This document shows, piece by piece, positions 1,400 to 27,686 of a DNA stretch of 64,000 bases (positions are counted from its first letter, which is position 1; each line of letters opens with the position of its first letter). Location: the IMG/VR virus record IMGVR_UViG_3300020180_000014, positions 1 through 64,000 of that record. The stretch is one strand, 5' to 3'. Below the pieces are notes generated by a model. That model had not been told where the DNA came from and made no database searches. It saw nothing but the letters and a program-made list of their open reading frames with translations. The position numbers were made by a program, and so were the translations under genes. Source of the stretch: a virus.

Positions 1400-2413
1400 A
1401 TGGCGCAGATCAATCCTCGTACGTTCGCGGACGCGAAGCAGCTCGCTGACAACATCTACGAGGTGATCCTGACCAACTGGGGCAACCGAGGTCAGAAGCA
1501 GGATCCGAACAACGGATCGATTCAGTACCCACCGGTCAAGTCGCTGCCCAACCTACCGGGCCGCGCACAAGCGATTCCGATCGTTCCGCTTGCGGGAACC
1601 GGCGACTTTCTACTGCCGCCGATCCCGAGCCTCTCCGCGATCGCGATCGCGCCGCGTAGCAACATCGATCGCTGCATCGTTCACTACGCGGGCTTGCCGC
1701 AGACGCCGTCGACGTTGCTCGCCGACCCATTCATCAGCCCGCTCATGCCGTGCACGATCGAGCAGGGCTTCATCAACAAGGGCGGCATCCTCGAATCCGA
1801 ACAAGTGCTTGCCGTCGGTGCGTCGCTGATCGGACAGCAGCCGGGACCTATCATCATTCGCGCACACCCTGCTGGATGGTTCAACGACGTCTACTTTCCG
1901 CTCGTCGGTGGCGGGCTGTTCGGCGATCCGTTCGGAACGGCGATCCAGGATAGCTACCTGATCGACGTCAACGGAGGTGCGCCTGCACCGTGGCTCAACC
2001 CAGAACTGCGCCTGATGTTGTACTTGAACGGCGCAGCGGCGTTGCCGCCGCAGAAGCGTGCGCCGTTCCGCGATACGTGGCTGTGCCGTCCTCCAGCGAC
2101 GAGCGAGATCATGCGCGTCGTGCCGATCATCGGACGCCGACACGTACAGGTGCTGATCGATGCACTTGCCAGTGACGTGACGTTCCGGATCACTGCAGTG
2201 GTGCAATCGCAGGCGGCGTCCACCAACGACGGCAACGCGGAGTTCGTCAACCTCTCAACCGAAGAGGTCGCGCTCACAGCCTCGACGCTTTTGACGGGCG
2301 GCACCCAGGCGATCGTCAAGTTCGATAACCCGGGCCTGACGTACATGATCATCCGCGCGAGCAGCTTGTTCGTCACGAGTTTCACCCAGGTGACGATCGA
2401 CGCGTTCGACTAG
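1400..2413 (+). CDS. putative virion structural protein (beta-rich C-terminus)
   Basis: 337 aa ORF with typical codon usage; alternating beta-strand pattern at the C-terminus. Confidence 0.75.
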   Translation: MAQINPRTFADAKQLADNIYEVILTNWGNRGQKQDPNNGSIQYPPVKSLPNLPGRAQAIPIVPLAGTGDFLLPPIPSLSAIAIAPRSNIDRCIVHYAGLPQTPSTLLADPFISPLMPCTIEQGFINKGGILESEQVLAVGASLIGQQPGPIIIRAHPAGWFNDVYFPLVGGGLFGDPFGTAIQDSYLIDVNGGAPAPWLNPELRLMLYLNGAAALPPQKRAPFRDTWLCRPPATSEIMRVVPIIGRRHVQVLIDALASDVTFRITAVVQSQAASTNDGNAEFVNLSTEEVALTASTLLTGGTQAIVKFDNPGLTYMIIRASSLFVTSFTQVTIDAFD

Positions 2414-2490
2414 GTATGTGAACTTGCTCGCGACTTGATTGAATTTCCGCATTGCCGACGGCGTCTACATCGTCGATGATCGGAGCAAGT

Positions 2491-2970
2491 ATGCGGAACT
2501 TGGTCTTGTTTTCTTTCCTGGTGGCGTGCACGGGGGACCCGACTTCGGTGGATCCCGATGCACCCGATTCAACAGTGGATGCACCCGACGGGACTCCGAG
2601 CGACGGTTCAGGCGCTGATGCCTCGACGGATGCAGGTGTTGACGCGACGCCGTTGATCGACGGTCCACTCGGTACGCCGGGCATGTGCGCGGTCGCCACG
2701 CAGACCGGATGCGCCACGGGGCAAGGCTGCTACCCGAGCGGTGGTTCGCTGATGAACTTCGACCCGAAGGGTGCCTGTGCAGTTGCAGGCGGGCTTCCTG
2801 TGGGAGGGTCGTGCACGATCCATCCCAACTGCGCCACCGGGCTCGTGTGCGAGGGTGGCGGTGGCGGCAACGGCAAGTGCAAGGCGATCTGCACGAGCAG
2901 CGCGACGTGCCCGACCACGACACCGACGTGCATGCTGTACCAGCACGGCGAGTACGGTCGCTGTCTGTAG
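2491..2970 (+). CDS. myxobacterial-type Cys-rich lipoprotein
   Basis: lipobox LVAC, DAP/DAG/DAS acidic linker, about 10-Cys C-terminal domain; RBS GGAG. Confidence 0.75.
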   Translation: MRNLVLFSFLVACTGDPTSVDPDAPDSTVDAPDGTPSDGSGADASTDAGVDATPLIDGPLGTPGMCAVATQTGCATGQGCYPSGGSLMNFDPKGACAVAGGLPVGGSCTIHPNCATGLVCEGGGGGNGKCKAICTSSATCPTTTPTCMLYQHGEYGRCL

Positions 2971-2973
2971 CCG

Positions 2974-3348
2974 TTAGGTAACGGGCAGGACAGCGGCGCT
3001 GGACTTCGACAGCACGTACCAGTTCGTGAGGCCGTCCGAGACGAGAAGAACGGCGTCGTACTGCAGCGGCAACGCGATCATCGTCGCACCGTCGATGAGA
3101 TCGGCACCTGCACGGAAGATTTCCGCGTCTGCACCGGCCGCGACCTTCTTGATATAGTAGGCCGCATGAGGCTTGCTGGCAGCGAGCGGCAAGTTGAGTG
3201 CACCGCCGGGCGTGCTGACCAGAATGACGGCGTCTGCGCTATCGACGCCGATGTTGAAGGGCGCAGCGTCGACGATGATGACACCGTACCGAAGGTACGC
3301 CTTGTTCATCAGGTCGAAGCGATCGTCCCACGTTTCGTTGTTCTTCAC
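2974..3348 (-). CDS. virion fibre/spike-associated small beta domain protein
   Basis: LNLPLAA...YYIKKV...DLIDGA...LQYDAVLLVSDGLTNWYV pattern, common at phage fibre C-termini. Confidence 0.65.
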   Translation of the reverse strand: MKNNETWDDRFDLMNKAYLRYGVIIVDAAPFNIGVDSADAVILVSTPGGALNLPLAASKPHAAYYIKKVAAGADAEIFRAGADLIDGATMIALPLQYDAVLLVSDGLTNWYVLSKSSAAVLPVT

Positions 3349-3362
3349 GATTCGGCCTTTCG

Positions 3363-3674
3363 TTATGCGAGCGGTAGCGCTTCAGAGGTGCTGATAGACA
3401 GCAGCCCACCTACTGCCGCGCCGATGCAGTAGAGACCTTGCTTCGGAGCCGCCACAAACGACTGTGACTGGCCCGGAAACAGACGAAAGGTTGCCGTTGA
3501 CGGTTGCGGGACGAGGTCCGTGACCGTTGCAGCAACGAAGATCACCACCGGCCCGACGTTGTTGACGAGAACGCGGATCGGCGCTTTCGCGGACTTCACG
3601 ATGGTCGTCGGCGTAGGAGCGCCGATCGGTTGAACCGTGAGCGTCTCGAAGTTCGTGTTCTGCATCGCTGGCAT
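3363..3674 (-). CDS. small beta-sandwich structural protein
   Basis: VLVNNVGPVVIFV...FRLFPGQS...LYCIG pattern. Confidence 0.65.
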   Translation of the reverse strand: MPAMQNTNFETLTVQPIGAPTPTTIVKSAKAPIRVLVNNVGPVVIFVAATVTDLVPQPSTATFRLFPGQSQSFVAAPKQGLYCIGAAVGGLLSISTSEALPLA

Positions 3675-3691
3675 CGTCGTCGATTACCGCG

Positions 3692-4228
3692 TTAGCGGAC
3701 TTCGCTCGGGGGACCGATGATGTCGAGGTAGCCCTGGAAGTTCACCTCGACGCGAATGAGTTGAACCTCGACGCGTTCGGGTTGAATGGTGGCGTCGAGG
3801 ATGACGACGGCGGGGTAGTCAGCCGTGTCGATCTGGACCTGGAAGCCTTCACTGCGCACGATCGTGTAGGGCTCTTCGAGGTCCCACGCTTGCGTGTTCT
3901 GCTGCAGCAGCTGGCTGACGAGCGTCGCGCTTTTGGTCAGGTTCTCGTTCTTCGAGAAGTCGAGGATGCGAATGCGCACGCGCTTCTGGAGCGTCGTCGG
4001 CTGCGGCTCCAGGATCGTCGGCGACGTGAACGTTTCGGGCGTGCCCTTGCCCGTCAGGCCCACCTTCATGCGGTGAACTTCGAACGGCTTGTCGACGTTG
4101 TGCAGGAACGACGCTTCCGGGAACACGACACCCGACTGGTTCGGACCGACGTCCAGCTCGGCGGCGATGTTGTACGGAATGCGGAACGTGATGTCCTTGC
4201 CCGCGAACTGGAGTGGCAGACGGCCCAT
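3692..4228 (-). CDS. candidate single jelly-roll capsid/penton protein
   Basis: RBS GAGGAG before ATG at 4228; all-beta pattern (FEVHRMKV, VRIRILD, PYTIVRSEGFQVQI, VEVNFQGY); fold is inferred. Confidence 0.55.
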   Translation of the reverse strand: MGRLPLQFAGKDITFRIPYNIAAELDVGPNQSGVVFPEASFLHNVDKPFEVHRMKVGLTGKGTPETFTSPTILEPQPTTLQKRVRIRILDFSKNENLTKSATLVSQLLQQNTQAWDLEEPYTIVRSEGFQVQIDTADYPAVVILDATIQPERVEVQLIRVEVNFQGYLDIIGPPSEVR

Positions 4229-4359
4229 GGGGTGATTCTCCTCGGAGGTCGAAAGTCGATCGCTGCTGCGACTGGTGTACGGCAACCCTCACCTAACCAC
4301 TGGAATCCCGCAAGACGGTTCGGTAGCTTTCACATACGAAGAGCTGTAACCCGCTGAAC

Positions 4360-6130: not shown

Positions 6131-6406
6131 ATGCCCGCCCAAGCTCTCATTCGTAAGCTCAGCAAGGATCAGATCGCTGCGAAGATCATCGCACTCAAGG
6201 CTGGTGATCTCTTGGAAATCGCACCGCACGCCGAAGGTACGTTGGTGCACTGCAAGACCGGTCCTGGCGGCGCGGCCAGCGTTGCCGGTTCCCCCGAAGC
6301 ACTGCAGGTGATCTGCGACGAGGATTCCAAGATCGTGCAGGCAGAAGCGAAAGCGCGCATCGAAGCTGAAGCTGCGGCGGCGGAAACGGCAGCCAAGAAG
6401 CCCTAA
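6131..6406 (+). CDS. hypothetical protein
   Basis: typical codon usage; TAGGAT lies 6 nt before the ATG. Confidence 0.65.
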   Translation: MPAQALIRKLSKDQIAAKIIALKAGDLLEIAPHAEGTLVHCKTGPGGAASVAGSPEALQVICDEDSKIVQAEAKARIEAEAAAAETAAKKP

Positions 6407-7182
6407 CGCTTCCGGCTCGTCTTCGACTTGTGTAGCTTGGTCGATGACTTCGCTACAGCAGCTACTGGCGGTGGCGGCTCGGTCACTTCGAGCACCTGTC
6501 GAATCGCACGAACCGTCACGAATTGCGGGTTGGGCGGCTCCTTTGCGGAACCCCACTGCCAGGCATCGTAGATGTCACTCTTGATCGTGAAGGCGACATC
6601 GGCGTCGACGATCTGCGCGACCAACACGAGCGCGAGGTAGTGTCCGGCCTCGGGCAGGTACACGTTGATGTACGGCACACGCTGCGGCAGCATCACAGGT
6701 CCGATTTCGGCATCGAAAATCGATCGCACGCAACGTCGTGCTGCAGCTTCACCGGTTTCGCCAATTTGTAGATCGCCCTCGGGGATCGACCACTGCTTGG
6801 TCCGTTTGTGGCGGCAGTAGAGTACCTGATCGTCGGCGTTCTTGACGACGACCGCTACGCACGCCCGGATCGCGACTCGATCGGTTGCATCGATTTCTTC
6901 GATTCGGTAGTCAGCTTCGGCGGTGTACTCACGCGTCGCCCAGCGTTCGGCAACAGACTTTTCGAAGAACGTTGCAAGCGGTTCTTGACTGTCCACGGGA
7001 GCGAAGACGGCCCACACACGACGGTCGCCCGGTAGCAACTCGGGTGGCCGTGGGCTCACGATGACGTAGACGGGACCACCGGGGGTCTCGTAAACCATGA
7101 GTGTAGCTTCAGATAGATCCTTGCGACGCTTGTCGTAGGCATCAGCAAGCATAGCGACACCGAGCGGTGCAAGTTGGGCCAT
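6403..7182 (-). CDS. protein with degenerate C-terminal Nudix-like domain
   Basis: VAVVVKN..QVLY.RH....WSIPEGDLQIGETGEAAARR; the Nudix box lacks the REUxEE glutamates. Confidence 0.6.
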   Translation of the reverse strand: MAQLAPLGVAMLADAYDKRRKDLSEATLMVYETPGGPVYVIVSPRPPELLPGDRRVWAVFAPVDSQEPLATFFEKSVAERWATREYTAEADYRIEEIDATDRVAIRACVAVVVKNADDQVLYCRHKRTKQWSIPEGDLQIGETGEAAARRCVRSIFDAEIGPVMLPQRVPYINVYLPEAGHYLALVLVAQIVDADVAFTIKSDIYDAWQWGSAKEPPNPQFVTVRAIRQVLEVTEPPPPVAAVAKSSTKLHKSKTSRKR

Positions 7183-7278
7183 GGTGTCGCCGATGCGGAT
7201 GATAGTCTTCACGTAAACGGGTTGTACTACGCCCTGTTGGCGGTGTGGTACGTTGGAAGTCAATCAGCGAGGTGATGT

Positions 7279-7800
7279 ATGCCCTTAGAGCAGATGGCTA
7301 CGGTTCTCTACGACAGCACCGATACCGAAACCGGTACGGTCGCAAATCCGTTCACGATCGATGGAACAGTCGTCGCCAATCAAGGCACACCTGCCGTCAT
7401 CGGTAACGCCTGGCCGATGCTCGTCACCGATGGTGTGATCAGCGCCGAAGTCCGAACGACGGCACCGCTCGCGGGTTCGGCAGGTCTCGTAGTCCGCATC
7501 GCGGGCACCGTTACGACATCGATCGCGCAGCCCTCGGTCGGAACCGTCACCAGCGTCGCACTCTCCACTGTCGTCGCGACAATTCTCGCGGCGAACGCTG
7601 CGCGACTGGGTGCCAGCATCTGGAATGACGGTGCCGCCAACGCCTACGTTCGGCTGGGTGCAGGTGCGACTACTGCGCTGTTCACGGCCAGGCTCGCGAA
7701 CAAGTCGTACTACGAGCTGCAGTTCCCGGCGTACACCGGGATCATCACCGGCATCACGAACGCCGCGACCGCAACGGCGATCGCCACTGAGCTGACGTAG
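7279..7800 (+). CDS. spike/fibre beta protein, paralog of 5712-6113
   Basis: RBS GAGG; shared C-terminal domain. Confidence 0.8.
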   Translation: MPLEQMATVLYDSTDTETGTVANPFTIDGTVVANQGTPAVIGNAWPMLVTDGVISAEVRTTAPLAGSAGLVVRIAGTVTTSIAQPSVGTVTSVALSTVVATILAANAARLGASIWNDGAANAYVRLGAGATTALFTARLANKSYYELQFPAYTGIITGITNAATATAIATELT

Positions 7801-7840
7801 TTGTGAGAGGTTGGCGGGCGTCGTAGGGTAGGAGCCTGCG

Positions 7841-8686
7841 ATGCCCGTCAACGACCAGACACCCGACGTCATGCTCTATGACTCCAACGGAGTCGAGATG
7901 GCCGTGGCGAATGGTGTCGCGATCCCTGTCGGGACGCGCGGGTTGTTGTCGGTCGGATCCGACGGTGCAAACGCACGGTTCCTACTCGTCGACGCGAGCG
8001 GTCGTCAGATTGCGGTAGGTGCTGCAGCATCTGGTGCAGTACCTGCCGGTAATCCCGCGCTCGTGGCAGGTTCGGACGGTGCTGCGGTCCGCACATTACT
8101 GACGGACACGACCGGCAGGCTCTACGTTCTGCAAACGCAAGACGAGCGCGCGACATGGTCGGCAATCGCAACAGGGATCAGCGTCGCGAACAACAAGTCG
8201 ATGATCTCGATCTTGAACGCGACAGGTACCGTCGTCGTGGTTCGGCTGCGCGAAATCTGGGTCGAGAACACGCAGGTTACCAGCAATACCGGTATCGTTG
8301 GACGATTCGAGGTCCATCGAATGACTGGCCATTCAGCAGGAACACTGATCACGCCGCTCTCCTATGACACTGCTGATGCACTCGACGTCAACGTTACGGT
8401 ACGTACTGGTGCGACAATCGCAGGCGAAGTTGCTGGCATACTTTGGCAAAAGATCTGGAGTACGGACCAGAAACAGGGCCCGCGTGGTGGCATTGGCGTC
8501 GGTAACAGTGCGGGCACGCTCGTCGATCACACACAGCAAGCACTCACACCGTTTTGGTCACGCAAAGATCTCTTGGAGCGTGCGTTCACGTTGCGATCGA
8601 ATCAGGGCTTCACCGTCAAGTTCGCGACGAACTCGACATCAGGTACGTTTGACCTCACGTTGGTCTTTACCCAGGCGAGCACCTGA
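7841..8686 (+). CDS. spike/fibre structural protein
   Basis: repeated GSDG..R.LL.D..GR fibre-like units; beta-rich C-terminus; RBS AGGAG. Confidence 0.75.
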   Translation: MPVNDQTPDVMLYDSNGVEMAVANGVAIPVGTRGLLSVGSDGANARFLLVDASGRQIAVGAAASGAVPAGNPALVAGSDGAAVRTLLTDTTGRLYVLQTQDERATWSAIATGISVANNKSMISILNATGTVVVVRLREIWVENTQVTSNTGIVGRFEVHRMTGHSAGTLITPLSYDTADALDVNVTVRTGATIAGEVAGILWQKIWSTDQKQGPRGGIGVGNSAGTLVDHTQQALTPFWSRKDLLERAFTLRSNQGFTVKFATNSTSGTFDLTLVFTQAST

Positions 8687-9375
8687 TGCCGCAGTTCACT
8701 TACAGCGCGATCGGCTATACAACGACGGTCGGGACTACGTTCACGCCAATCGTGGCGACGACGTACATCGAGCAGACCGGGAACGCGCAACGCTCGTTCG
8801 TGTCGACAAGCCCTGTCGACTTCGCAGGCGGTACGGGAGCGCGCACCGTCCGGCTCACGTACTTCGACCAGACGATGACCGGACCGTTCACCGAAGACAT
8901 CGTGCTCAGTGGCCTTACGCCTGTCGACACGACGAACGCAAACATCTGCTTCATCGAATCGTTGATCGTGTTGACGGTTGGCGCACAGCTCGGCAATGTT
9001 GGTACGATCGGACTCAAGGCGGCGGCAGCAGGTGCAGGCGCGACCATCGGTTCAATCGCGCCCGGCGATAACCGCACGCAGTGGGCGCACCACTACGTGG
9101 GTCAAGCGCGCGTTGCGTACATCACGGATCTTCACGGCACGATCAAAGGGATTGCGTCGGGCGAGCTGCATGTTCGAACGTCGACACCAACAATTGCGAA
9201 TACACCGGAACAGACCATCGCACCGGTCATCACGTTGCCGCCTGGTACCCCTGAACAGATTCTGTTCCCGTCAACGATCGTCGTGTTCGGTCCCCAGCGC
9301 ATCATCCTCTACGCAAAGAGCGCGATCGGTGTAAACCAAGACTGGCAGGCCGCATTCGGCTATACGGAGTCTTAG
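8686..9375 (+). CDS. structural beta protein, paralog of 9380-10174
   Basis: GTGART.R..Y.D.T..GPFT...NI.F.E...LTVG...NVGTI.L...GSIA..D.RT.W.HHY shared. Confidence 0.8.
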   Translation: MPQFTYSAIGYTTTVGTTFTPIVATTYIEQTGNAQRSFVSTSPVDFAGGTGARTVRLTYFDQTMTGPFTEDIVLSGLTPVDTTNANICFIESLIVLTVGAQLGNVGTIGLKAAAAGAGATIGSIAPGDNRTQWAHHYVGQARVAYITDLHGTIKGIASGELHVRTSTPTIANTPEQTIAPVITLPPGTPEQILFPSTIVVFGPQRIILYAKSAIGVNQDWQAAFGYTES

Positions 9376-9379
9376 CCTC

Positions 9380-10174
9380 ATGAGTCGCACGGATCGCCCC
9401 ATCGTCAACGCTGTCGGTTTTTCCGAGGGCGCATTGATTGCGGCTGGGCAGAGCAGCGGCGCAGCCGGGCTCGTCGCAGCGTACACAGCGGCAGCTGCAG
9501 CATCGATCACGGTCGTTCGTGCGACGGTCTACACCGAACCTGGTGCAGCAGCGCAACTTGAAGTGATTTCGTCGAGTGCGAACGATGACGGGGCACCACC
9601 CGGAACCGGTGCACGGACGATCCGAATCGTCTACTACGACGGGACCTGTGCTGGACCGTTCACGACCGATGTGATCATGAACGGAACGGCAGCTGTTGCA
9701 ACGGGTGTCTCGAACATCCGCTTCGTCGAGTGCATGCACCTGCTGACCGTCGGCAACAACGGCACCAATGTCGGGACAATTACACTGCGTGGGCTCGGTG
9801 GCGGCGCTTATGTGGGTTCGATCGCAGCAAGCGACGGTCGTACGTTTTGGGGACATCACTACATCGCGACAGGCCGTATCGGGCAAGTACTGGAGCTGAA
9901 CGCGGCCCTCACGAACGCTAAAGGTACTGCGTTTCTTCGTTCGATCGACGTGCTGACCGTTGACGCCTTCGAGCAACAGATCACTGCAAGCATGCGCATT
10001 GGCCCGGCAGCTGCTGGTGCTGCTGCAGCACCGTCACCTTTACAACCCTCACTTGTGTTCCCGTTCGGGTGTCTGTTTGTGACGGGTCCAGCACGCGTGT
10101 CTGCGTACGTACGACCTGATGCAGCAGTCGTCGGAAATCTTGCACACGTGAGCTTTAGCTTCCTCGATGTGTAA
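9380..10174 (+). CDS. structural beta protein, paralog of 8686-9375
   Basis: same shared motif block. Confidence 0.8.
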   Translation: MSRTDRPIVNAVGFSEGALIAAGQSSGAAGLVAAYTAAAAASITVVRATVYTEPGAAAQLEVISSSANDDGAPPGTGARTIRIVYYDGTCAGPFTTDVIMNGTAAVATGVSNIRFVECMHLLTVGNNGTNVGTITLRGLGGGAYVGSIAASDGRTFWGHHYIATGRIGQVLELNAALTNAKGTAFLRSIDVLTVDAFEQQITASMRIGPAAAGAAAAPSPLQPSLVFPFGCLFVTGPARVSAYVRPDAAVVGNLAHVSFSFLDV

Positions 10175-15702: not shown

Positions 15703-15738
15703 AAATGAAAAACGGCCCGATCCGAAGACCGAGCCGTT
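15703..15738 (-). terminator. rho-independent terminator after the candidate major capsid gene
   Basis: - strand AACGGCTCGGTC-TTCG-GATCGGGCCGTT-TTTCATTT. Confidence 0.85.
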
Positions 15739-17574: not shown

Positions 17575-17808
17575 CTAGCGTCGCGAGCAGCGCGAAGAGC
17601 CTTGCTTGAACTCCCAGCCGGTCCGGCTCTTCTTGCCGGACTTGGTCCGCGTACCGAGGCCGACGTAACAGAGCTGCATCTCGCAGCCGGTACGCGGGTT
17701 CGTGGTCGTCTTGCAGAAGCCGACGACGGGCGTGTCCCCGAGCTGCGCGTTCTTGCGCTTGCGCTTGGACTTCGTCTCGCCGCCGCTGATCGTGAAGACG
17801 CTCGGCAC
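17575..17808 (-). CDS. small basic Cys-containing protein
   Basis: GTG overlaps the upstream TAG; KRKRKNAQLG-DT; 4 Cys. Confidence 0.65.
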   Translation of the reverse strand: MPSVFTISGGETKSKRKRKNAQLGDTPVVGFCKTTTNPRTGCEMQLCYVGLGTRTKSGKKSRTGWEFKQGSSRCSRR

Positions 17809-19028: not shown

Positions 19029-20830
19029 TGTTCGTGGCTAAACGTTCACGTGCGTTCGGTGCGTCAGACCCGACACAGATTTTCGCGACGCGTGCGGAAT
19101 ACAACCCAGTGCCGGTGGCACCTTCGCGCGTCGATGCGTTTCTTCTTCCAGCGGTGACTGCGCAGCTCTATAAAGTTGCGACGCCGACGCTCGGTCCGTT
19201 GATCTGTCAACGACCAGGCTACACGTGGATCGAAGCAGCTGCTGGAGTGCCCGGTCACTGGGAACGTCAAAGGGCAGGCTCAACGGGCGAGGGTCTTCCA
19301 GGTCCCGCTGATCCGGTGACCGGTGCGTGCGGCACCAGCGAAATACGTGTTCACACGTCGGGCTCGGTACCCGGTACTACGGTGACGGCGACGAACACAC
19401 TTCGCACACTGCATTTTCAGTTCGTGCAGGTGCTCAGCGCGTTTCTTCAAGAGCTGAACACGATCAACAAGCAGCTGACGACACTGCTACCTGCATGTTC
19501 TGAAGAGCTGCAGCTCACGAAGACGCCGTGGGTAACAAACCTCAACTCGCGCGGACCAGCAGGCAAGATGGGCTGGGCGTACGACCAGTATCACAGCCCA
19601 CAAGCCGTCGCTGCGTGGGCTGATGCGCGTGAGATGTCCGGCGGGATTAGCAATCCCGCGCTCTGGCAGCGCTCGATGATCCCCGGCACCTTCGGCATCT
19701 TCGGTGTTCCGTTCGCGTTCACAGAACGGAACGAAGCGGTCTATCAGAAGACCTTCACGCCGTCGGTGAATCAGCGCTGGTTGATCGAGTACCAGATCGT
19801 GCTCGCATCCAACAGCGGTGACACGATCGATGACGCCACACGGAAGCTCAAGGTCAGCGACGCGCTCATCAAGCTCAATCAGAAAGGACTGCACTACACG
19901 ACGAACCTGCCAGGGTTCGGCTTGAATCCATCGCCGCCGATGAAAACCGATACGCTCGGCGCGTACCTGGCGAGCGGTGGTTACCTGATCGATCTCGATC
20001 GGACACAGGGCATTCAACCTGCACCGCTCGTCGGAAAATCGATCGGCAAGATCCCCAACGGCCGTCTGGCATGTACGACGTTCTGCAAAGATCCCAGTTC
20101 CGGTCTGCCGTACTGCACCGAAACGATAAATCTCAGCGGCGATGCTGACAACGTCAGCTCCTGGGACATCTACGTCAACATCGGACCCACGTGCACGATC
20201 ACGGCGAAGTACCGCGAGTACGATCCATCGTGGTTCGGTAAAGCGGTCAGTGTCGTTGCAGGCTTCATGGACAAGACGCTCAAGGCGGTTTGTACACCGG
20301 GGACACCGACGAACAGCTATGCGACCAGTGCAACGGGTGCAGCAGCGAGTTCAACGAACCCGTACATGATGGTGTGGGGAAAAACAGGCGGGTACGTACT
20401 GGCGAAGTGCGGTGTCGCGTTCACACCGAAGACGCCGATCACGCCCGTGGAAGCACAGTTGCTGACGCCGCAAGTGTCGCCGCAGCCACTCGCACCGGTC
20501 TCCGCAATCCCGCCGAAGTATCAGGGTTGTCTCTCACGTTTCCACAAGAGCAAGCGCACGTTCTCGGTCTACTGTCCTTTGGACTGGCAACCTACTGGAC
20601 CGGGGTTGGGTGCAGCAGATCTTTTCGGGCAGGTCGTCATACCCGCACCGCCCGCCGGGACGATCAAGGTCGCCAACTTGCCGGTCGCGCCGTCTGAAGC
20701 GCCAAACGTCGGCACCGAAGACGATCCACTCTACGCAAAGTGGTGGTTCTGGACGATCGTCGGCAGTGTTGCGGTTGCAGGCAGTGTCGGTGGCGTTGCA
20801 CTGGTACGGCGACGCCGTCGTACGCGCTAA
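19028..20830 (+). CDS. C-terminally anchored virion membrane protein (family member 1)
   Basis: YQGCLSRFH...FSVYCP...GLG...PLYAKWWFW-TM-RRRRR. Confidence 0.85.
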   Translation: MFVAKRSRAFGASDPTQIFATRAEYNPVPVAPSRVDAFLLPAVTAQLYKVATPTLGPLICQRPGYTWIEAAAGVPGHWERQRAGSTGEGLPGPADPVTGACGTSEIRVHTSGSVPGTTVTATNTLRTLHFQFVQVLSAFLQELNTINKQLTTLLPACSEELQLTKTPWVTNLNSRGPAGKMGWAYDQYHSPQAVAAWADAREMSGGISNPALWQRSMIPGTFGIFGVPFAFTERNEAVYQKTFTPSVNQRWLIEYQIVLASNSGDTIDDATRKLKVSDALIKLNQKGLHYTTNLPGFGLNPSPPMKTDTLGAYLASGGYLIDLDRTQGIQPAPLVGKSIGKIPNGRLACTTFCKDPSSGLPYCTETINLSGDADNVSSWDIYVNIGPTCTITAKYREYDPSWFGKAVSVVAGFMDKTLKAVCTPGTPTNSYATSATGAAASSTNPYMMVWGKTGGYVLAKCGVAFTPKTPITPVEAQLLTPQVSPQPLAPVSAIPPKYQGCLSRFHKSKRTFSVYCPLDWQPTGPGLGAADLFGQVVIPAPPAGTIKVANLPVAPSEAPNVGTEDDPLYAKWWFWTIVGSVAVAGSVGGVALVRRRRRTR

Positions 20831-21156
20831 GTGATCTTGTCGATGCGCGCGACGATGCCTTCGAGATCTTCGATCGTCGTCAGCAGATCGAGGTAGTCGT
20901 CGCCGTCGATCGCAGCACCGCTCGCGTTAGCCAGACGTGCCGCGAAGCGCAGCTCGTCAAGGGCCGCGTGTAGGTTGCGCGGCGAGAAATCGTTCGACAT
21001 GAGCCGGTAGCACGGGCTGTTTTGGCCACCGTGCCACTGCTCGCAGATCTCAACTGCGTCAGCGAGGTCGCCGTCCCATACACGTGCGACCGCCCGGGTC
21101 TCGACGTTCTTGTAGACCAGGTAGCCGTTCTTGTCTTGGCTGTACCGGATCGACAC
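20827..21156 (-). CDS. hypothetical protein
   Basis: QWHGGQNSPCY motif, typical codons. Confidence 0.65.
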   Translation of the reverse strand: MSIRYSQDKNGYLVYKNVETRAVARVWDGDLADAVEICEQWHGGQNSPCYRLMSNDFSPRNLHAALDELRFAARLANASGAAIDGDDYLDLLTTIEDLEGIVARIDKIT

Positions 21157-21160
21157 AGCG

Positions 21161-21469
21161 TTAGAACGGAATGTAATCGGGTTGGCGCCGTGCGCGGTTC
21201 ACTGCTCGACGCTGTTTCGCCGTGGTCGGCTTACCTTTTCGTTTGCGTCGAACAGGTCCCTTGTGCGGCTTGCGTGCTGAGCCGCAGTAGTTTGCGCCTT
21301 TGCACAACGTAAAATGCAGATCTTCGTGACCCTGACGTTGGAGCGCACGCAGTTTCTTCTTGGCGCTTTGCAACCTGGTTGCACAGACTTCCTTGAAGTG
21401 CTGTTCGCCGACGATTTCGTCACGTGAACCGTAACGGGGGACGCTGCCCCAAATGCAATACTTTGCCAT
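21161..21469 (-). CDS. basic Cys-containing protein
   Basis: RBS AGGAGG; K/R-rich C-terminus. Confidence 0.7.
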   Translation of the reverse strand: MAKYCIWGSVPRYGSRDEIVGEQHFKEVCATRLQSAKKKLRALQRQGHEDLHFTLCKGANYCGSARKPHKGPVRRKRKGKPTTAKQRRAVNRARRQPDYIPF

Positions 21470-21478
21470 GACGACCTC

Positions 21479-22282
21479 CTACGCGACGAAGTCCTGATGC
21501 TTGCCGTTCGGTGCTTCGCGACCGAACATGTTGCCCGGCAGCGTCGTGTCGAGCGGCACCCAACGTTGCGGGCGCGTCTTCGGTAGACCCGCGAGCCCGT
21601 AGATGTGTGCCCAGTCGGACGACTTCGACGGTGCCGTGATCCGGAACTTCGCTGGGATGCCGTTGAGTGCGAGCAGTGTCGACGTCACGATGGTGTGACC
21701 GTCGCAGTCTTCGCCGCCGAACTCGACGGTGCGCTTCGCGGTCTGGAACAGGTCGACACCTTCGACGTCACCGCCGGGCATCTTGATGGGTGCGACGTCA
21801 CCCGTGTACCGGATGTTCTGCTTCGTCCAGTTATAGACGGCTTCCGACTCACAGAGTCCGTCGCGCGCGGGACAGTTCGCACCCTTCACGCGGAACTTGC
21901 GCTTGCCGACGGTGACATCACGCGTGCCATTGCCCGTGACAGCAAGGGCAAGCTCGCGCATCTGCGGATCCTGGACACCCTTCCACACCAGATCCTGCAG
22001 GATGCCGACGCGCTGCTCGATCGGCATCTCCGGATCGTAGTGGTGGGTGAGCGTCATCCCACCCTTGGACACGCGAGCCTGTACGCGACCGAGCGTGTCG
22101 CGCAACGTGGCCGTACGACGCTTCGCAGCGATGCCGTACGCGATCGCGCCACCGATGACGGCGAGACCACCGACAATCATCGCAGCGACAGCGATCTTCT
22201 CGGGCTGGGTGGTCCTGAGGCCTTCGGCGGAAGCACCAAGGCCGTTTCCGGCACGTTTACGCACAAGGGCGTGACTGCGCAT
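21479..22282 (-). CDS. membrane-anchored transglutaminase-like cysteine protease (candidate maturation protease)
   Basis: GEDCDGH (Cys), WAHIY (His), WVPLDTT (Asp) triad; IRYTGD; N-terminal TM. Confidence 0.85.
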   Translation of the reverse strand: MRSHALVRKRAGNGLGASAEGLRTTQPEKIAVAAMIVGGLAVIGGAIAYGIAAKRRTATLRDTLGRVQARVSKGGMTLTHHYDPEMPIEQRVGILQDLVWKGVQDPQMRELALAVTGNGTRDVTVGKRKFRVKGANCPARDGLCESEAVYNWTKQNIRYTGDVAPIKMPGGDVEGVDLFQTAKRTVEFGGEDCDGHTIVTSTLLALNGIPAKFRITAPSKSSDWAHIYGLAGLPKTRPQRWVPLDTTLPGNMFGREAPNGKHQDFVA

Positions 22283-22300
22283 GCTTGAAAACTAACACAA

Positions 22301-22316
22301 GATCGCGCACGCGATC
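22301..22316. promoter_or_regulatory. GATCGC-N4-GCGATC palindrome
   Basis: flanked by TAGTTT-6 nt-ATG on the - strand and TAGACT on the + strand. Confidence 0.65.
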
Positions 22317-22331
22317 GACCTAGACTAGCGT

Positions 22332-22361
22332 TTGACAACGCGCGCTTGCGCCGAGTAGCTT
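22332..22361 (+). promoter_or_regulatory. sigma70-like promoter
   Basis: TTGACA-18-TAGCTT; palindrome at 22373-22388 just downstream. Confidence 0.55.
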
Positions 22362-22401
22362 GAAGACGTACCGATCGCTCTTGCGATCGCCCGGAGCCAA
22401 C

Positions 22402-23094
22402 ATGCTTTTCACGCAGCACAACGGTCTCGCTCAAGCAGTGGGTGACGACAACATCAGCCAGCTGCAGGAACTTGCATGCGGCCTCGGTCCGCAGGTCGAC
22501 GGCCTCATCGCCAGCGTCGTGCAGCCACAGTCGATGGGCGCGTTCAGCACGCAGGGTGCGATGAACGCGTGCATGATGCGCAGCCAGCAAGCTGAACAGC
22601 ATCAGCCAACGACGACCACGCAGCGCGGTTTCGGTAACGCGATGGGGGTGAACGCGGCGCTCATCAAGGCCGTGTCGATGCCGTTCACCGAGATGAAGCT
22701 GATGACGGCCATGATGCCGCAGCAGGCTGCAGCGCCGTCGTACATCGACCCGAACACCAATCCGTACGGTCCCGAGACGCCGTTGCCGACGACGACGTCG
22801 TATCCGGCGGGAACGATCACGGCGTTCAGCTCGAAGACGAACATGTGGCGCGTCGCCGTTCCGACGGTCGCAGCTGGGCTCGGGATGTTCGGCGCCGCTG
22901 CAGCGTTCACTGAGATCGCCGCAGTCGCGTCACCGCCACCAGGCGCGACGCAGGTGAGCGAGTCGCAGCTGGAAAAGCAGACCAACCAGCTGCCGATCTG
23001 GAAGAAGTGGCAGTTCTGGGCGGCGATCGGTGGCGGCGTCGTGGTCGTGGGCACGGGCACTGCGCTGCTGTTCCGGCGCAAGCGCGCGGCGTAA
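22402..23094 (+). CDS. C-terminally anchored virion membrane protein (family member 2)
   Basis: YPAGTITAFS...WRVAVP...GLG...PIWKKWQFW-TM-RRKR. Confidence 0.85.
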   Translation: MLFTQHNGLAQAVGDDNISQLQELACGLGPQVDGLIASVVQPQSMGAFSTQGAMNACMMRSQQAEQHQPTTTTQRGFGNAMGVNAALIKAVSMPFTEMKLMTAMMPQQAAAPSYIDPNTNPYGPETPLPTTTSYPAGTITAFSSKTNMWRVAVPTVAAGLGMFGAAAAFTEIAAVASPPPGATQVSESQLEKQTNQLPIWKKWQFWAAIGGGVVVVGTGTALLFRRKRAA

Positions 23095-23114
23095 GCTCAA
23101 CCCGAGCTGCTCGT

Positions 23115-23144
23115 TTGACAAGGTAGGTAGCAACCGCGTAGTTT
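23115..23144 (+). promoter_or_regulatory. sigma70-like promoter
   Basis: TTGACA-18-TAGTTT; palindrome at 23155-23170 just downstream. Confidence 0.55.
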
Positions 23145-23192
23145 TGAGGGGTTCGATCGCTCACGCGATCGCCCTTCAAGGAGCCCACGCGG

Positions 23193-24113
23193 ATGCTGAC
23201 CACCCAGTACAACGGCACGAACGGTTTTGGTGGGCAGCTAGGCGCCCTCGTGTCGAGCGCTGCCACTGCCGATCTGCAGAAGTATCTCGCGAGCATCGGC
23301 AAGCTCGGGCAGTCCAACGTCACGGGTGTGATGAACGACGCCACGATGGCCGTCATCTACAACATGCTCGTGCAGTCAGCGGCGACCGTCGGGAAGATCC
23401 CGCTGTTGCCGCAGAATATCCGCGACGGCATCACCAAGGTGACGAGCGCGCTCAAGTCGGCCGACGACAAGATTCGTAGCGTCTCGTTCGGGCAGGCGTC
23501 ACTGTCGTCGGTGTTCGGCAACTGGGCCACGATCAACGCGGCGGTGCGGCTCATCAGCAGCTCAGCTGCTGATGCAATGGCGTCTGCGCGCGAGAGTGTC
23601 TACAACGCCGTCGCGGGCTACGCGAGTACGGTGCTCGCAGCGGTGAAGGTCTTCTTCCCGCCTGCATCGACAGCGGGTGCCACGCAGCCGAACGCTCAGA
23701 TGCTGACGGCACTGCTTCAACCGGTTCAGGCGTACTTCTCGACGTCGACGACGCCGTCGAGCACGCAGTCGTACCCGACGGGAACGATCTACGCGTTCAG
23801 CTCGAAGATGGGCCGGTACCGCATCGCGATCCCGAAGATCTTCGGTGGCGGTCTCGGCATCCAACAGGACGGCGTGTTCGGCGACTGCGTGTTCGGTGAC
23901 TGCGGTCTGGGCGCCGCCGCGACGATGACCGAGGTTGCACCGTCGACGACGCCACCTGCAGGTGGAATCCCGACGACGGAGACCGAGCTGGAGAAGCGCA
24001 CCGGGACGTTGCCGATCTACAAGCGGTGGGAGTTCTGGGCGGCGGTCGGCGGCGGTGTCGCAGTGATCGGTACAGGCACGGCGCTGCTCATGCGGCGTAA
24101 GAAGGTGGCGTAA
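23193..24113 (+). CDS. C-terminally anchored virion membrane protein (family member 3)
   Basis: YPTGTIYAFS...YRIAIP...GLG...PIYKRWEFW-TM-RRKK; RBS AAGGAG. Confidence 0.85.
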   Translation: MLTTQYNGTNGFGGQLGALVSSAATADLQKYLASIGKLGQSNVTGVMNDATMAVIYNMLVQSAATVGKIPLLPQNIRDGITKVTSALKSADDKIRSVSFGQASLSSVFGNWATINAAVRLISSSAADAMASARESVYNAVAGYASTVLAAVKVFFPPASTAGATQPNAQMLTALLQPVQAYFSTSTTPSSTQSYPTGTIYAFSSKMGRYRIAIPKIFGGGLGIQQDGVFGDCVFGDCGLGAAATMTEVAPSTTPPAGGIPTTETELEKRTGTLPIYKRWEFWAAVGGGVAVIGTGTALLMRRKKVA

Positions 24114-25432
24114 TGCTGCAAGCGACGATGACACGTGACGCTGGAGTGGCACCGGCAGAACCGACGCCGCCGCCACCGTCGAACAACATGATCCTGTATC
24201 AGCAGGCGTTCACGAAGATGCCAACGTCGACACCGACGACGCCAGCACCGTCGAAGAGTGCACCGTTCGTCGAAGGTCGGCTCGTGAAGCAGGTGCTCAC
24301 GCTGCCGTACGCGTGCTCGAACAATGTCTGCACGGCATCCGGTCAGCTCGGCTTCACGTTCCAGACGCTGCAGTCGCTGATCAACATGGCGAACAAGAAG
24401 CTCGGCAACGCAGCGATCGCCGTCGATGGCAAGATCGATGCGCGGACGCTCGCTGCGTACCTGCCGATCTCGCGCGCCGTCGGTGGCGTGCTCGCGATCT
24501 TCGATTTCACGCCGACGCCCGACTACCTCGCGAAGAACGCCGACGCGTTTGCGCGTGCGATCGCACTGTGGCTCGGCATGACGTGGGTCGAAGCGACTGC
24601 TGATGTCCCCGGACACTGGGAGCGTCTGCGTGCAGGCGCAACGACGGCGAATCTACCGACGATGCCGGTTGCGCAGCCGCAGCCCGGCTACAGCGTGGAA
24701 CCGCAGCGGGAGCCGCAGCCGCAGCCGCAGCCGCAGCCGCAGCCGCAACCGCAGCCGCAACCGCAGCCGCAGACGACGATGGTCATGTACGTGTGCCCTG
24801 ACGGTACGCGCGTCTCGGATCTGTCGGCGTGTCCGAAGCCGCAAGCACAACCCGTGGTGCTGCCACCGCAGCCAACACCCGTGCAGCCAGTGATCACGTT
24901 GCCCCCGCCGACATCTCTGGCGGTGTTGCCGCCATCGTGGCAGCCCGCGACGCGGGACGCGGCGACGACCGCACCGACGATCGGACGTTTCCAAGGCTGC
25001 ATCGCGCGCTTCAATCGTACGCGCAAGGTGTTCTCGATCTACTGCCCTGTCGGATCAGCGGCGGCGATGCCGGGACTCGGCACGATCGATCAGGAGTACT
25101 TCCGCTGCTTGCGCGGCAACTGTACCGGTCTCGGTGCCGACGAAGTTACGCCCGCAGTGCCGGAAGGTTTCGTCAAGGCTGCTGAAGTCACGACGTTGCC
25201 TCGTGCAGGCGAGGTCCAAGCCGGTGAGGAGCGCGACCGGTTCTTCCGTCTCGGGAACCCGCTCATGTGGGCGGCGATCGCAGGTGCAGCGACGGTGGTT
25301 GGTGGTGGCAGCTACATGCTGTACCGCCGCAAGCAGCACACCAGCGGATTCGGTGCGCTTCGGTGCCCCGAAGGACAGGTTTGGAGCAAATCGTATGGCG
25401 GTTGCCTCCAACGAGGAAAGCGCGGGCACTGA
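24113..25432 (+). CDS. C-terminally anchored virion membrane protein (family member 4) with PQ linker
   Basis: FQGCIARFN...FSIYCP...GLG...NPLMWAAIAG-TM-RRK. Confidence 0.85.
   Translation: MLQATMTRDAGVAPAEPTPPPPSNNMILYQQAFTKMPTSTPTTPAPSKSAPFVEGRLVKQVLTLPYACSNNVCTASGQLGFTFQTLQSLINMANKKLGNAAIAVDGKIDARTLAAYLPISRAVGGVLAIFDFTPTPDYLAKNADAFARAIALWLGMTWVEATADVPGHWERLRAGATTANLPTMPVAQPQPGYSVEPQREPQPQPQPQPQPQPQPQPQPQTTMVMYVCPDGTRVSDLSACPKPQAQPVVLPPQPTPVQPVITLPPPTSLAVLPPSWQPATRDAATTAPTIGRFQGCIARFNRTRKVFSIYCPVGSAAAMPGLGTIDQEYFRCLRGNCTGLGADEVTPAVPEGFVKAAEVTTLPRAGEVQAGEERDRFFRLGNPLMWAAIAGAATVVGGGSYMLYRRKQHTSGFGALRCPEGQVWSKSYGGCLQRGKRGH
24713..24772 (+). repeat. (CCGCAR)x10 hexamer tandem repeat encoding a PQ linker
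   Basis: direct reading. Confidence 0.9.
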
Positions 25433-25626
25433 TGCTCGCGTTGCATCACGAACCGGCGCTGCAGGGTTGTGCCTGCCACAGGCCGCAACCGCAGCTCGGT
25501 GACGCATCCAGCAAGAAGGCTGCGTGGATTGGTGCAATCGGGCTCGGGCTATCAGCCGCGCTCATGGTCGCGCTGGGCTTCCACAAGCCTGCGCCTCGAC
25601 GGGCCAGTCGCCGTCGACGCACGTAG
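25432..25626 (+). CDS. small membrane protein with basic tail
   Basis: TGATG coupling; QLG-DA motif, TM, RRASRRRR. Confidence 0.65.
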   Translation: MLALHHEPALQGCACHRPQPQLGDASSKKAAWIGAIGLGLSAALMVALGFHKPAPRRASRRRRT

Positions 25627-25664
25627 ACGATCGCTCGCGCGATCCATGGTAGAGTTTGGGTCGC

Positions 25665-26189
25665 ATGCTCACGGCGACTCGCGGCACAGTCTCGTTCGTT
25701 CAAAGCGTCGGTGTGGCGCCGTCGACGACGACGATGAACATTCCCGGTCCTGCAGGCCTGGGCGGTGCGCCTGGTCCCGCGCTCGTGGCCCCCAACAAGC
25801 CGAGGTTCTACGTGCCCTACGCATCGATCGAAGATCTCCGTTCCGCCCAGATCGCCCAAGCTGGGCTCGGCATCATCAACGAAGGTGATGCGTGGCTGAC
25901 CGGTCGGCCGTACGGTTTGCCAGGCACGACAGCGATCACGCTCACGCAGCGGCCCGGCGGGTATCACAGTCCGCAGGGTTTCCACTACAACGCGTCGCTG
26001 CGCGGTGCAGGCTTCGGTGACACCGACAGCATCGCGTTGCAGCTCGCAGCGCTCGTCGAGCAGCAGAAGGCGCAGGAAGCGTCGCTGAAGCGTATCGCGT
26101 TCTGGCAAGCGCTCAGCGGTGGCCTCGCGGTCGGTGCAGTGGCGCTCAGCGCGACGTTCGGTGTGCTCACGTACATGCGGAGCCGTTGA
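25665..26189 (+). CDS. C-terminally anchored membrane protein
   Basis: AGLG, AGLG, AGFG-D motifs, short coiled coil, TM. Confidence 0.75.
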   Translation: MLTATRGTVSFVQSVGVAPSTTTMNIPGPAGLGGAPGPALVAPNKPRFYVPYASIEDLRSAQIAQAGLGIINEGDAWLTGRPYGLPGTTAITLTQRPGGYHSPQGFHYNASLRGAGFGDTDSIALQLAALVEQQKAQEASLKRIAFWQALSGGLAVGAVALSATFGVLTYMRSR

Positions 26190-26191
26190 AC

Positions 26192-26644
26192 ATGGTGGTC
26201 AACGAAATCCAGCGGACGATCAATGGCCTCGGTCAACCACCTGGCCGCACCACGAACACGATCATTCCGTACGGCAGCTGGATGCCATTCCAGCCTGGTG
26301 CGATTGCACGTCGTCCCGGATTCGGCGACGTGCCGAATGACTTCGAGGCGTCGGTCGACCTGCAGTACATCCCCGTGCGCCAAGCCTGGTACTACGGTCA
26401 GCCGGTTGACGGTCGCGGCTACCCGGACGCGGGCTTGCCGAGGCGCGGACTCGGGCGCCATCTCGGTGACGCGGCGTCGGAGCAGGCGCTTCAGCAGCTC
26501 GCCAAGACCGAGCGTCTGCAGACGATTCTGCAGGTGGTCTCGACGCTGTCAATCGCGACGGTCGCGACACTTGCCGTGATCAAGGCAGTTCGCGCACGTC
26601 GAGGTGGCGGTCACACGCCACTGTTCGGCGACGACGACGAGTAG
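26192..26644 (+). CDS. C-terminally anchored membrane protein
   Basis: NGLG, PGFG-D, RGLG, HLG-DA motifs, TM. Confidence 0.75.
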   Translation: MVVNEIQRTINGLGQPPGRTTNTIIPYGSWMPFQPGAIARRPGFGDVPNDFEASVDLQYIPVRQAWYYGQPVDGRGYPDAGLPRRGLGRHLGDAASEQALQQLAKTERLQTILQVVSTLSIATVATLAVIKAVRARRGGGHTPLFGDDDE

Positions 26645-26673
26645 TGCACATGGTGTAGGCTGCAGCCTGCGCT

Positions 26674-27132
26674 ATGGCACGCACGCTCTGTAACCCGCCC
26701 GTCGAGGCCAGCTTGGTCGCGCCGCGACTGTATGTCGGTTCCCGTCCGCGTCCCGGCCGTTACCGCTGGTTCAACATGGTGGTGCTCTGTGCAAAGGAGT
26801 ACCAGCCGCCGAGTTTCGGGTTTCCAGGCATGAACGTGATCCGGATCCCGCTCGTCGACGACTTCGTGCACCCGCTGTCGATTGTCGACCAAGCGCTTGT
26901 CGTCTCGAACGCACGTACGATTGCACGCTACCTCGAAGGCGGTGCGTGTGTGCTCTCGACGTGCTGGCAAGGTTGGAATCGCTCGGCGCTTGTAGCTGCG
27001 ATCGCGATGCAGATCGCGTTCGATATGAGCGCCGACAACGCGATCACACAGATTCGCGAGACACGGTCACCGAACGCGCTTGGGAATCCACGGTTCGAAC
27101 GGTTCGTGCGCGACTTCGAGAAGACGCGCTAG
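26674..27132 (+). CDS. dual-specificity protein phosphatase
   Basis: LYVGS, RIPLVDD (acid loop), CWQGWNRS (CX5R), AI..IR..R...L.N..F. Confidence 0.85.
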   Translation: MARTLCNPPVEASLVAPRLYVGSRPRPGRYRWFNMVVLCAKEYQPPSFGFPGMNVIRIPLVDDFVHPLSIVDQALVVSNARTIARYLEGGACVLSTCWQGWNRSALVAAIAMQIAFDMSADNAITQIRETRSPNALGNPRFERFVRDFEKTR

Positions 27133-27686
27133 CAGCCGCGTGCGATGCGTACGATCTTTGTGCCGCGCGACGTGTCGACCATTGACGCTGCTTCGGACTT
27201 GTTCCGCGCTTCGATGCACAACGCCGTTGGCGTCTTGAAGTGCCGCGACCGTACGGTCACGCGGTAGCGTGTGCCAAGACGGCCACGGCCAGCGAGTCGA
27301 CCACGGAGCTTCTTGAACTCGGCGGTGTTCTGATCGAGATCGATCACGTCGCCGGTCTCCGGATCGACGAAGTAGGCGGGCTGACGCTCTTTCGACGGTC
27401 GCTTGTGGCCGCGTCGTTTGCCAGCGAGTGACTTCTTGTGGCGGCTCGGACGACGACGTTCGACTGCCGTGTAGAGGATCAGGAACAGCGACACGAACGT
27501 CGAGCTGAGCAAGGCACCCGTGACCAGTCGCTTGTCACGGACGCCTGCGATCGCGAGGCCGGGCATCATCAGCGCCGAGCGCAGCATCCAGTGGCCGATG
27601 ACCTTCGGCACCGCCCCCGGTTCGCCGTTGAACATGCCACAGACGGACGCCGAGGATGGGGCAGTAGGACAGCTGCGGATCGCCAC
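27129..27686 (-). CDS. membrane protein with basic C-terminal domain
   Basis: two hydrophobic segments followed by a K/R-rich region; TACGTT lies 6 nt before the GTG. Confidence 0.65.
   Translation of the reverse strand: MAIRSCPTAPSSASVCGMFNGEPGAVPKVIGHWMLRSALMMPGLAIAGVRDKRLVTGALLSSTFVSLFLILYTAVERRRPSRHKKSLAGKRRGHKRPSKERQPAYFVDPETGDVIDLDQNTAEFKKLRGRLAGRGRLGTRYRVTVRSRHFKTPTALCIEARNKSEAASMVDTSRGTKIVRIARGC

Follow-up and report, generated by a model that had tools for sequence, protein, structure and literature searches.

We analysed a 64,000-nucleotide window, the first 64 kb of the linear, 91,395-bp IMG/VR virus record IMGVR_UViG_3300020180_000014 (62% G+C, no terminal repeat), with emphasis on its span 1400–27686, in which ~35 of the 134 genes called with a codon-bias gene finder fall. 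With a probability of roughly 0.6, the window carries the virion-morphogenesis module of an undescribed lineage of large double-stranded DNA (dsDNA) bacterial viruses, which would be non-tailed, have a jelly-roll capsid and lack HK97 capsid protein, portal and terminase. The main capsid candidate is the product of gene g26, and that of g10 is a candidate second jelly-roll virion protein (Table 1). No published description of such a lineage was found in our literature searches.

The IMG/VR contigs with g26 homologs of 91–93% identity are 196 and 221 kb long, and others of 39–138 kb carry homologs of 53–68% identity; the genomes of the lineage span about 77–232 kb. The record of the window (G000) is collinear with the 221-kb relative (G002) and spans the ends of that contig, and it is therefore a fragment. 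It lacks the block that corresponds to 90–173 kb of this relative, and is probably a ~91-kb piece of a genome of 170–220 kb. A preliminary description of the window spoke of a genome of more than 64 kb; the record, at 91,395 bp, is not the whole genome. Among the more distant relatives, seven genomes of 77–138 kb are circularly closed. Terminal repeats are present in six g26-bearing records and in one closed record of a distant branch. Exact terminal overlaps of 90, 127 and 123 bp, the signature of circularly closed assemblies, were confirmed in three records (85.7, 85.2 and 137.9 kb). The genomes of 85,650 bp, 85.2 kb and 138 kb are named G010, G018 and G006 below.

The jelly-roll candidates and their gene context

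The best conserved gene of the record is g26, which is 91% identical to its counterpart in the 221-kb relative, against ~56% for a typical gene and 54–66% for the replication proteins. It belongs to the 27 core families obtained by clustering five genomes, and it has the strongest codon bias (G+C at third codon positions, GC3, 0.92). Its 434 or more homologs have no Pfam family, and its superfamily comprises 227 clusters at 50% identity, every one of 200–330 aa. Contigs from RNA libraries of four studies cover g26, which is a weak hint of transcription, as DNA carry-over is possible.

The AlphaFold model of g26, built from a 30-sequence alignment, is an eight-stranded jelly-roll, a beta sandwich with long strands (predicted local distance difference test, pLDDT, 68.6; predicted template-modelling score, pTM, 0.67). 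In a Foldseek search of the PDB all 50 best matches are viral jelly-roll capsid proteins, none of them below an E value of 1e-3, and the probability for SPV1 is 0.80. The VIA Z scores are 6.8 for SPMV, 6.7 for SPV1 VP4 (145 aa), 6.0 for HHIV-2, 5.6 for HCIV-1 and 5.2 for P23-77 VP17. Language-model features point weakly to PM2 P2 and PRD1 P3 (score 0.77). The codon bias of g10 is likewise strong (GC3 0.85), and its AlphaFold2 (AF2) model is also an eight-stranded jelly-roll (pLDDT 88.1, pTM 0.79). Its Z scores are 7.7 for the Faustovirus major capsid protein, 7.5 for HCIV-1, 7.4 for HHIV-2, 7.2 for SPV1, 6.9 for P23-77 VP17 and 5.9 for PRD1 P3; a BFVD search returned generic jelly-rolls only. 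A profile-to-profile comparison of g26 with g10 detected no relation. Such jelly-roll matches alone do not prove a capsid role for either protein.

Gene context is the stronger argument. In the small closed genomes g27, g26, g10, g9 and g6 are contiguous within 4 kb, with g10 only 0.9 kb from g26, while in the window ~11 kb of variable spike-like and accessory genes separates the two. Among the neighbours, g6 evolves fast (23–43% identity among relatives); its Atlas model is poor, with a C-terminal beta sandwich that resembles small viral proteins at a template-modelling (TM) score of 0.76–0.78, and a feature comparison calls it XepA-like at 0.90, which is a lead only. In the 221-kb relative a diverged g10 paralog (176 aa, 25% identity) directly adjoins a HerA/DUF87 gene. 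The g10 ortholog of the same genome (contig L041, 86671–87536) is broken after about residue 40 and resumes ~440 bp further on, with a LAGLIDADG-type open reading frame beside it. The probable cause is an intron or a homing element that has entered a capsid-type gene; homing elements typically target highly conserved genes.

A distant branch of the g26 superfamily carries three tandem paralogs of 248, 231 and 236 aa in place of the single gene (L075:9983–12175, also L076–L080). Its contigs are 31–87 kb long, one of them is closed, and TerL, the large terminase subunit, is found in none. Ahead of the paralogs lie genes for a Gly-rich membrane protein resembling g27 and for a protein rich in Lys and Arg. 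A transglutaminase-like gene lies upstream of the capsid block, and proteins of 397 and 336 aa, weak matches to the g10 profile, lie downstream at the syntenic place. Three tandem jelly-roll paralogs are as expected for heteromeric capsomers.

Tailed-phage genes, packaging ATPases and alternative readings

Between 1 and 57 kb all called genes of 60 aa or more were scanned with Pfam and PHROG hidden Markov models (HMMs), with no family match to terminase, portal, major head or HK97 capsid protein, sheath, tube, tape-measure or baseplate, and no tailed-phage structural family was found in the ten largest genes of 64–91 kb. The block missing from the record encodes helicase, ATPase, HNH, methyltransferase and similar genes. 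No head or tail gene is among its ten largest proteins in the 221-kb relative, nor, outside the block, among the ten largest unmatched proteins of this relative. A PHROG scan of the 114 proteins specific to this relative was dominated by HNH families in the best 25 matches listed.

The TerL profile phrog_2 had no match in 21 records, 15 carrying close and six carrying distant g26 relatives and seven of the 21 having terminal repeats, whereas it matched five of nine control huge phages that share only the von Willebrand factor A (vWA) gene. PF03237, PF03354 and a huge-phage TerL protein query were negative in the record, the 221-kb relative and the seven closed relatives, with positive controls, and an unfiltered local search with a TerL profile reached a best E value of only 0.098. 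The HK97 capsid profile PF05065 matched none of ten clade genomes, against weak matches in four of four control huge phages. The portal profile PF04860 was negative in the clade genomes, but in the controls as well, and PF04665 was negative in the clade genomes. In the genomes tested g26 and TerL are mutually exclusive, g26 being absent from the TerL-bearing controls.

The core gene set leads to the same point. The only core proteins of at least 400 aa are PolA, SNF2, an SF3-like helicase and a coiled-coil protein, one family of ~300 aa is a tyrosine recombinase, and none of the 27 families is a protein of portal size without explanation. The representatives of 22 core families in the record have no structural PHROG match, and the remaining five are one integrase and small proteins of at most 222 aa. 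A hallmark gene would have to be core, so that, judged by size and family matches, no plausible terminase or portal is left. In the closed genome G010 the 25 best PHROG matches (to 7.6e-10) include integrase, dUTPase, kinases, endolysin, sigma factor and spike or fibre domains, with no TerL, portal or capsid among them. Gene 14 of G010 was considered as a TerL and rejected; it has no P-loop and is not core.

The 64–91 kb part of the record carries replication and nucleotide genes, namely thyX, a 566-aa SF3-like helicase, SNF2, Sak4, RNR, a HerA/DUF87 ATPase, a UDG-PolA fusion, an XPD-like helicase and Dam. The HerA/DUF87 gene (contig 76326–78029, L001:14326–16029) lies between RNR and PolA, encodes a C-terminal winged-helix region, and scores 2.1e-11 with Pfam and 1.8e-17 with phrog_2666, annotated as terminase large subunit. 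Its distribution is limited to G000, G001 and G002, the large-genome subclade; seven other clade genomes, of which five are closed, lack it. For this reason it is not the packaging motor of the lineage; that role is also disfavoured by its position in the replication block and by its nearest solved relatives, which are HerA proteins from defence systems. The 566-aa P-loop protein g107 was likewise rejected as a packaging ATPase on account of its SF3 (D5-like) Walker A/B/C spacing and its location, and is probably replicative. A Pox_A32 or A32/P9-type ATPase is absent from the clade genomes searched. The UDG-PolA fusion (contig 78026–80644) has 872 aa here and 1229, 1371 and ~1500 aa in relatives, which suggests inteins in some copies.

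These results bear on the preliminary description, which was made from the letters of the window and proposed a tailless, membrane-containing virus. The scans agree with its statement that the ~27-kb span holds no terminase, portal, HK97 capsid, tube, sheath or baseplate gene. Both of its beta-rich capsid candidates, g26 and g10, are modelled as jelly-rolls with Foldseek and VIA matches, albeit generic ones, and the terminator that it assigned to g26 is found as a 12-bp stem. It had set an FtsK/HerA-type packaging ATPase against TerL and portal as the alternatives to be looked for in the rest of the contig. That part holds a HerA-type ATPase, and no TerL, portal or HK97 gene was found in it, but the ATPase is limited to the large-genome subclade. 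The tailless reading is supported, as neither tailed-phage hallmark genes elsewhere in the contig nor a different fold in the models was found.

Several observations weigh against this reading. For g26 and g10 the fold matches are generic and of middling strength (best Z 6.8 and 8.2): the top match of g10 is nucleoplasmin (Z 8.2), tailed-phage cement proteins match g26 at Z ~6, and cement proteins of tailed phages (KHP40, Pam1), tail-fibre tips, nucleoplasmin and GOLD domains score equally. The g26 model itself is moderately confident. No sequence link was found between g26 or g10 and solved structures, GenBank phages, PM2 P2, SSIP-1 or known capsid families. As to the hallmark searches, phrog_2 missed one real TerL, in control G003, the PHROG results for the 221-kb relative and G010 are the best 25 matches listed, and negative HMM results leave room for hallmark genes diverged past recognition. 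IMG/VR-type labels put many relatives in Uroviricota. No packaging ATPase conserved across the lineage was found, unlike in PRD1-type and P23-77-type viruses. Finally, the reading is drawn from sequences and models.

The alternative that survives best, though we consider it unlikely, is a different architecture: an enveloped or pleomorphic virus, or a membrane-wrapped nucleoprotein core, with the jelly-rolls as surface or matrix proteins. The many tail-anchored membrane proteins with variable ectodomains, the several protamine-like basic proteins and the missing conserved packaging ATPase would suit it, and a jelly-roll fold per se is no proof of a lattice. However, the extreme conservation of g26, its near-exclusive 3Di match to icosahedral capsid proteins and its triplication in the sister branch fit lattice-forming capsomers better. 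No bacterial virus of such an architecture is known to have a comparable genome.

Next in line, and improbable in our judgement, is a tailed phage (Caudoviricetes) with terminase, portal and HK97 capsid genes too divergent for the HMMs, and with g26 and g10 as cement, decoration or fibre proteins. The jelly-roll cement proteins and a tail-fibre tip among the structural matches, the tail-spike and tail-fibre PHROG matches in relatives, the automatic Uroviricota labels and the one control TerL that escaped phrog_2 would all agree with a tailed phage. But TerL is the most conserved phage gene, and here it is absent from seven closed genomes by five profiles and the unfiltered local search; in size and character none of the core proteins resembles TerL or portal, and the 22 core families lack a structural match. 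Moreover, cement proteins are not normally the best-conserved gene of a genome, nor do they come as three tandem paralogs. A non-viral origin, as a large plasmid-like or integrative element that uses jelly-roll and membrane proteins at the cell surface or for transfer, is very unlikely: circular genomes, a tyrosine recombinase, relatives binned into metagenome-assembled genomes (MAGs) and the lack of a classical hallmark gene at the sequence level would allow it, but no conjugation gene is among the matches, the gene content is viral-looking and of phage type (a PolA-Sak4-SNF2 replication module, HNH and LAGLIDADG homing endonucleases, an endolysin-type domain, integrase, spike-like proteins, dUTPase, thyX and RNR), and g33 is homologous to a virion protein of phage SSIP-1.

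Membrane, basic, spike-like and accessory genes

The features of the module and its surroundings are collected in Table 1. The preliminary description had called the genes of the span structural-looking. A probable particle module is present, but the NUDIX, vWA and phosphatase genes are non-structural, and the conserved module runs past 27686 to ~32.2 kb (g41–g45). The description had also noted more than ten transmembrane proteins with basic tails. The hydropathy listing gives ten or more of them: a hydrophobic segment with a basic cluster directly after it is found in g11, g27, g30, g33, g34, g35, g36, g37, g38 and g40, ten proteins within the span, and also in g1 and g2 just upstream of it.

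Table 1. Positions of the candidate virion genes and other features in the window
Feature	Position	Strand	Description	Basis or remark
g26, 249 aa	15770..16519	-	main capsid candidate	AF2 jelly-roll, conservation, core gene
Intrinsic terminator	15711..15738	-	directly 3' of g26	12-bp stem, 7 GC pairs, then T run
g10, 178 aa	3692..4228	-	candidate second jelly-roll virion protein (second capsomer protein/penton)	AF2 model, core gene
g9, 103 aa	3363..3674	-	small beta-rich core protein	adjoins g10 in 5/5 compared genomes; no family match
g6, 337 aa	1400..2413	+	fast-evolving core protein, candidate vertex/spike	after g9 in small genomes
g27, 279 aa	16686..17525	-	Gly-rich membrane protein	core; always upstream of g26, adjoining in all genomes
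g30, g34–g38	19382..26644	+	C-terminal membrane anchor and basic tail (RRRRRTR, RRKRAA, RRKKVA etc.)	hydropathy, tails; interval also includes g31–g33 on the minus strand
g33, 261 aa	21479..22264	-	membrane-anchored transglutaminase-like protein (Cys-His-Asp)	Pfam Transglut_core, 24.8 bits (cut-off 23)
g4, 91 aa	826..1101	-	33% Lys+Arg, candidate DNA-condensing protein	composition
g28	17575-17808		basic like g4	near-core
g32	21161-21469		basic like g4	
g21, 218 aa	11335..11991	-	multi-copy family with common N-terminal anchor, spike-type	clustering
g15–g18	7279..10174	+	four beta-rich spike-like proteins	composition alone; no family match
g22, 772 aa	12042..14360	-	vWA protein, accessory, not structural	phrog_2426, 5e-174
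NUDIX protein	6403-7212		non-structural	
Dual-specificity phosphatase	26674-27132		non-structural	
g41 (790 aa), g42, g43	27745..31124	.	core trio just outside the span	adjoining in 5/5 genomes

The tail-anchored proteins g30 and g34–g38 have no Pfam or PHROG family match. Between 22402 and 26189 several tail-anchored proteins share the N-terminus ML-x-TQ-x-NG, and g37 has the peptide VGVAPSTTT in common with the N-terminus of g26; such shared N-terminal peptides may be a common processing or targeting signal. The transglutaminase-like g33 is a core gene, 84% identical to the 221-kb relative, and is homologous to the structural protein gp34 of SSIP-1 (29% identity over 117 aa, E value 1e-12) with the catalytic Cys, His and Asp retained. 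Four small proteins consist of 22–33% Lys+Arg.

Proteins of the g21 family have a common N-terminal part of ~90 aa and different C-terminal parts, an arrangement that resembles the anchor domain of multi-spike phages. The 138-kb relative has 11 copies, and in G010 the larger proteins 147 and 148 carry the g21-type N-terminal part. The scan of G010 gave tail-spike and tail-fibre PHROG matches, seen at the level of the genome rather than of single proteins. The spike-like g15–g18 are variable, not core, and are common to the closest relatives only. For the core trio g41–g43 no Pfam or PHROG match was obtained. The first of them, g41 (27745–30117), combines a Gln/Pro-rich stretch, a Glu/Arg-rich coiled coil of ~300 aa and a conserved C-terminus, and its length varies from 699 aa in G010 through 711 aa in G006 and 721 aa in G018 to 866 aa in G002; such a protein may serve as a scaffold or for size measurement. 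The vWA match of g22 is the sole strong Pfam or PHROG match in 1400–27686. This protein is 34–35% identical to a 'vWA containing protein' of Ackermannviridae and others and is also found in TerL-bearing huge phages.

The probable myxobacterial host of the preliminary description is unsupported, since the MAG bins that contain relatives belong to four unrelated phyla (Gemmatimonadota, Actinomycetes, Polyangiales and Woesearchaeota), and no host can be named from genome bins. Relatives of the capsid module occur in a Gemmatimonadota MAG 'chromosome' (L071, CP070815.1 3705222–3725920), with a PolA relative 1.5 Mb away. This locus contains a 100-N gap and is therefore a joined scaffold, which is no sound host evidence. 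The record itself probably stems from a microbial mat, and the lineage was seen in mat, soil, bog, wetland, lake and drinking-water samples.

Proposed particle and comparison with known systems

From fold, conservation and gene order we infer a particle whose shell would be built of small jelly-roll proteins, with g26 as the major subunit, while g10, g9 and g6 would add other capsomer or vertex subunits. The Gly-rich g27 and a dozen tail-anchored membrane proteins point, as judged from their sequences, to a lipid layer beneath or surrounding this shell. The Lys/Arg-rich g4, g28 and g32 may condense the genome, the g21-family spikes with their common N-terminal anchor may bind receptors, and g33 could be a particle-associated enzyme like its SSIP-1 homolog, the homology being observed and the role presumed. 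In this proposal the particle would have a membrane and an icosahedral form, with g10, g9 and g6 in the roles just given. Because no packaging ATPase is conserved across the lineage, we favour as a speculative working model that the shell assembles around a pre-condensed genome, as proposed for SPV1.

Going further, the lineage could be a new one of high rank, the largest non-tailed viruses of prokaryotes (to ~230 kb), with one to three paralogous shell subunits, a protein-rich membrane, a protein-condensed genome and no packaging motor. Gigantism would then have arisen separately in bacterial viruses, alongside the giant viruses of eukaryotes; we advance this tentatively, at somewhat under even odds. 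To our knowledge every described bacterial virus above ~50 kb is tailed, and tailless jelly-roll phages are thought to be restricted to small genomes. If a widespread lineage with genomes of 77–232 kb does have a jelly-roll shell and lacks terminase, portal and HK97 capsid, this size rule is overturned and a major branch is added to virus taxonomy. It would then be possible to study in a tractable system how a large capsid is measured, and how it is filled with no packaging motor. Marker-based virus classifiers would be filing the whole lineage under tailed phages.

With PRD1 and PM2 (Tectiviridae and Corticoviridae) the proposed virus would share a tailless particle, an internal membrane and many small membrane proteins. 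There are differences: their capsid proteins are double jelly-rolls whereas g26 and g10 are modelled as single ones, their genomes are 10–15 kb, and there is no A32/P9-type ATPase here. PF18628, a test for the double jelly-roll of Bamfordvirae, gave no match. The Helvetiavirae (Thermus phage P23-77 with VP16 and VP17, HHIV-2, HCIV-1 and SH1) are tailless, with two vertical single jelly-roll capsid proteins of ~170 and 230–290 aa, against 178 aa for g10 and 249 aa for g26. The matches, all with monomer models, reach Z 7.5 for HCIV-1, 7.4 and 6.0 for HHIV-2, 6.9 and 5.2 for VP17 and 5.8 for VP16. However, these viruses have genomes of 16–31 kb and a conserved FtsK/HerA-type packaging ATPase beside the capsid genes, no such ATPase is conserved here, and g26 and g10 have no sequence relation to their capsid families.

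SSIP-1 is a bacterial, tailless, membrane-containing phage with two types of capsid protein; its genome is circular and has hardly any relatives in the databases (PMC6356626). The core protein g33 has a homolog there, the structural protein gp34, and SSIP-1 also has tandem paralogous structural proteins of ~210 aa, gp45 and gp46. In contrast, its genome is only 43.8 kb, and the g26 and g10 profiles give nothing significant there. The link is weak because the transglutaminase-like domain is widespread.

SPV1 (Sulfolobus polyhedral virus 1) of the Portogloboviridae has hexamers of the single jelly-roll protein VP4 and pentamers of VP10 (PDB 6OJ0); inside lie a membrane and a circular, condensed nucleoprotein core (PMC8459092). 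It is an archaeal virus whose genome of 20.2 kb is only a quarter to a tenth as large as those of the present lineage, which span 77–232 kb and carry bacterial signals. The two share no sequence similarity, and the Z scores are within the range of chance fold resemblance. Nevertheless, its chains are among the best matches (Z 6.7 for g26 and 7.2 for g10), and separate single jelly-rolls, basic proteins, many membrane proteins and the lack of a conserved packaging ATPase, known here from the genes alone, form a similar combination. SPV1 thus serves as the closest working analogy for the virion that the window may encode.

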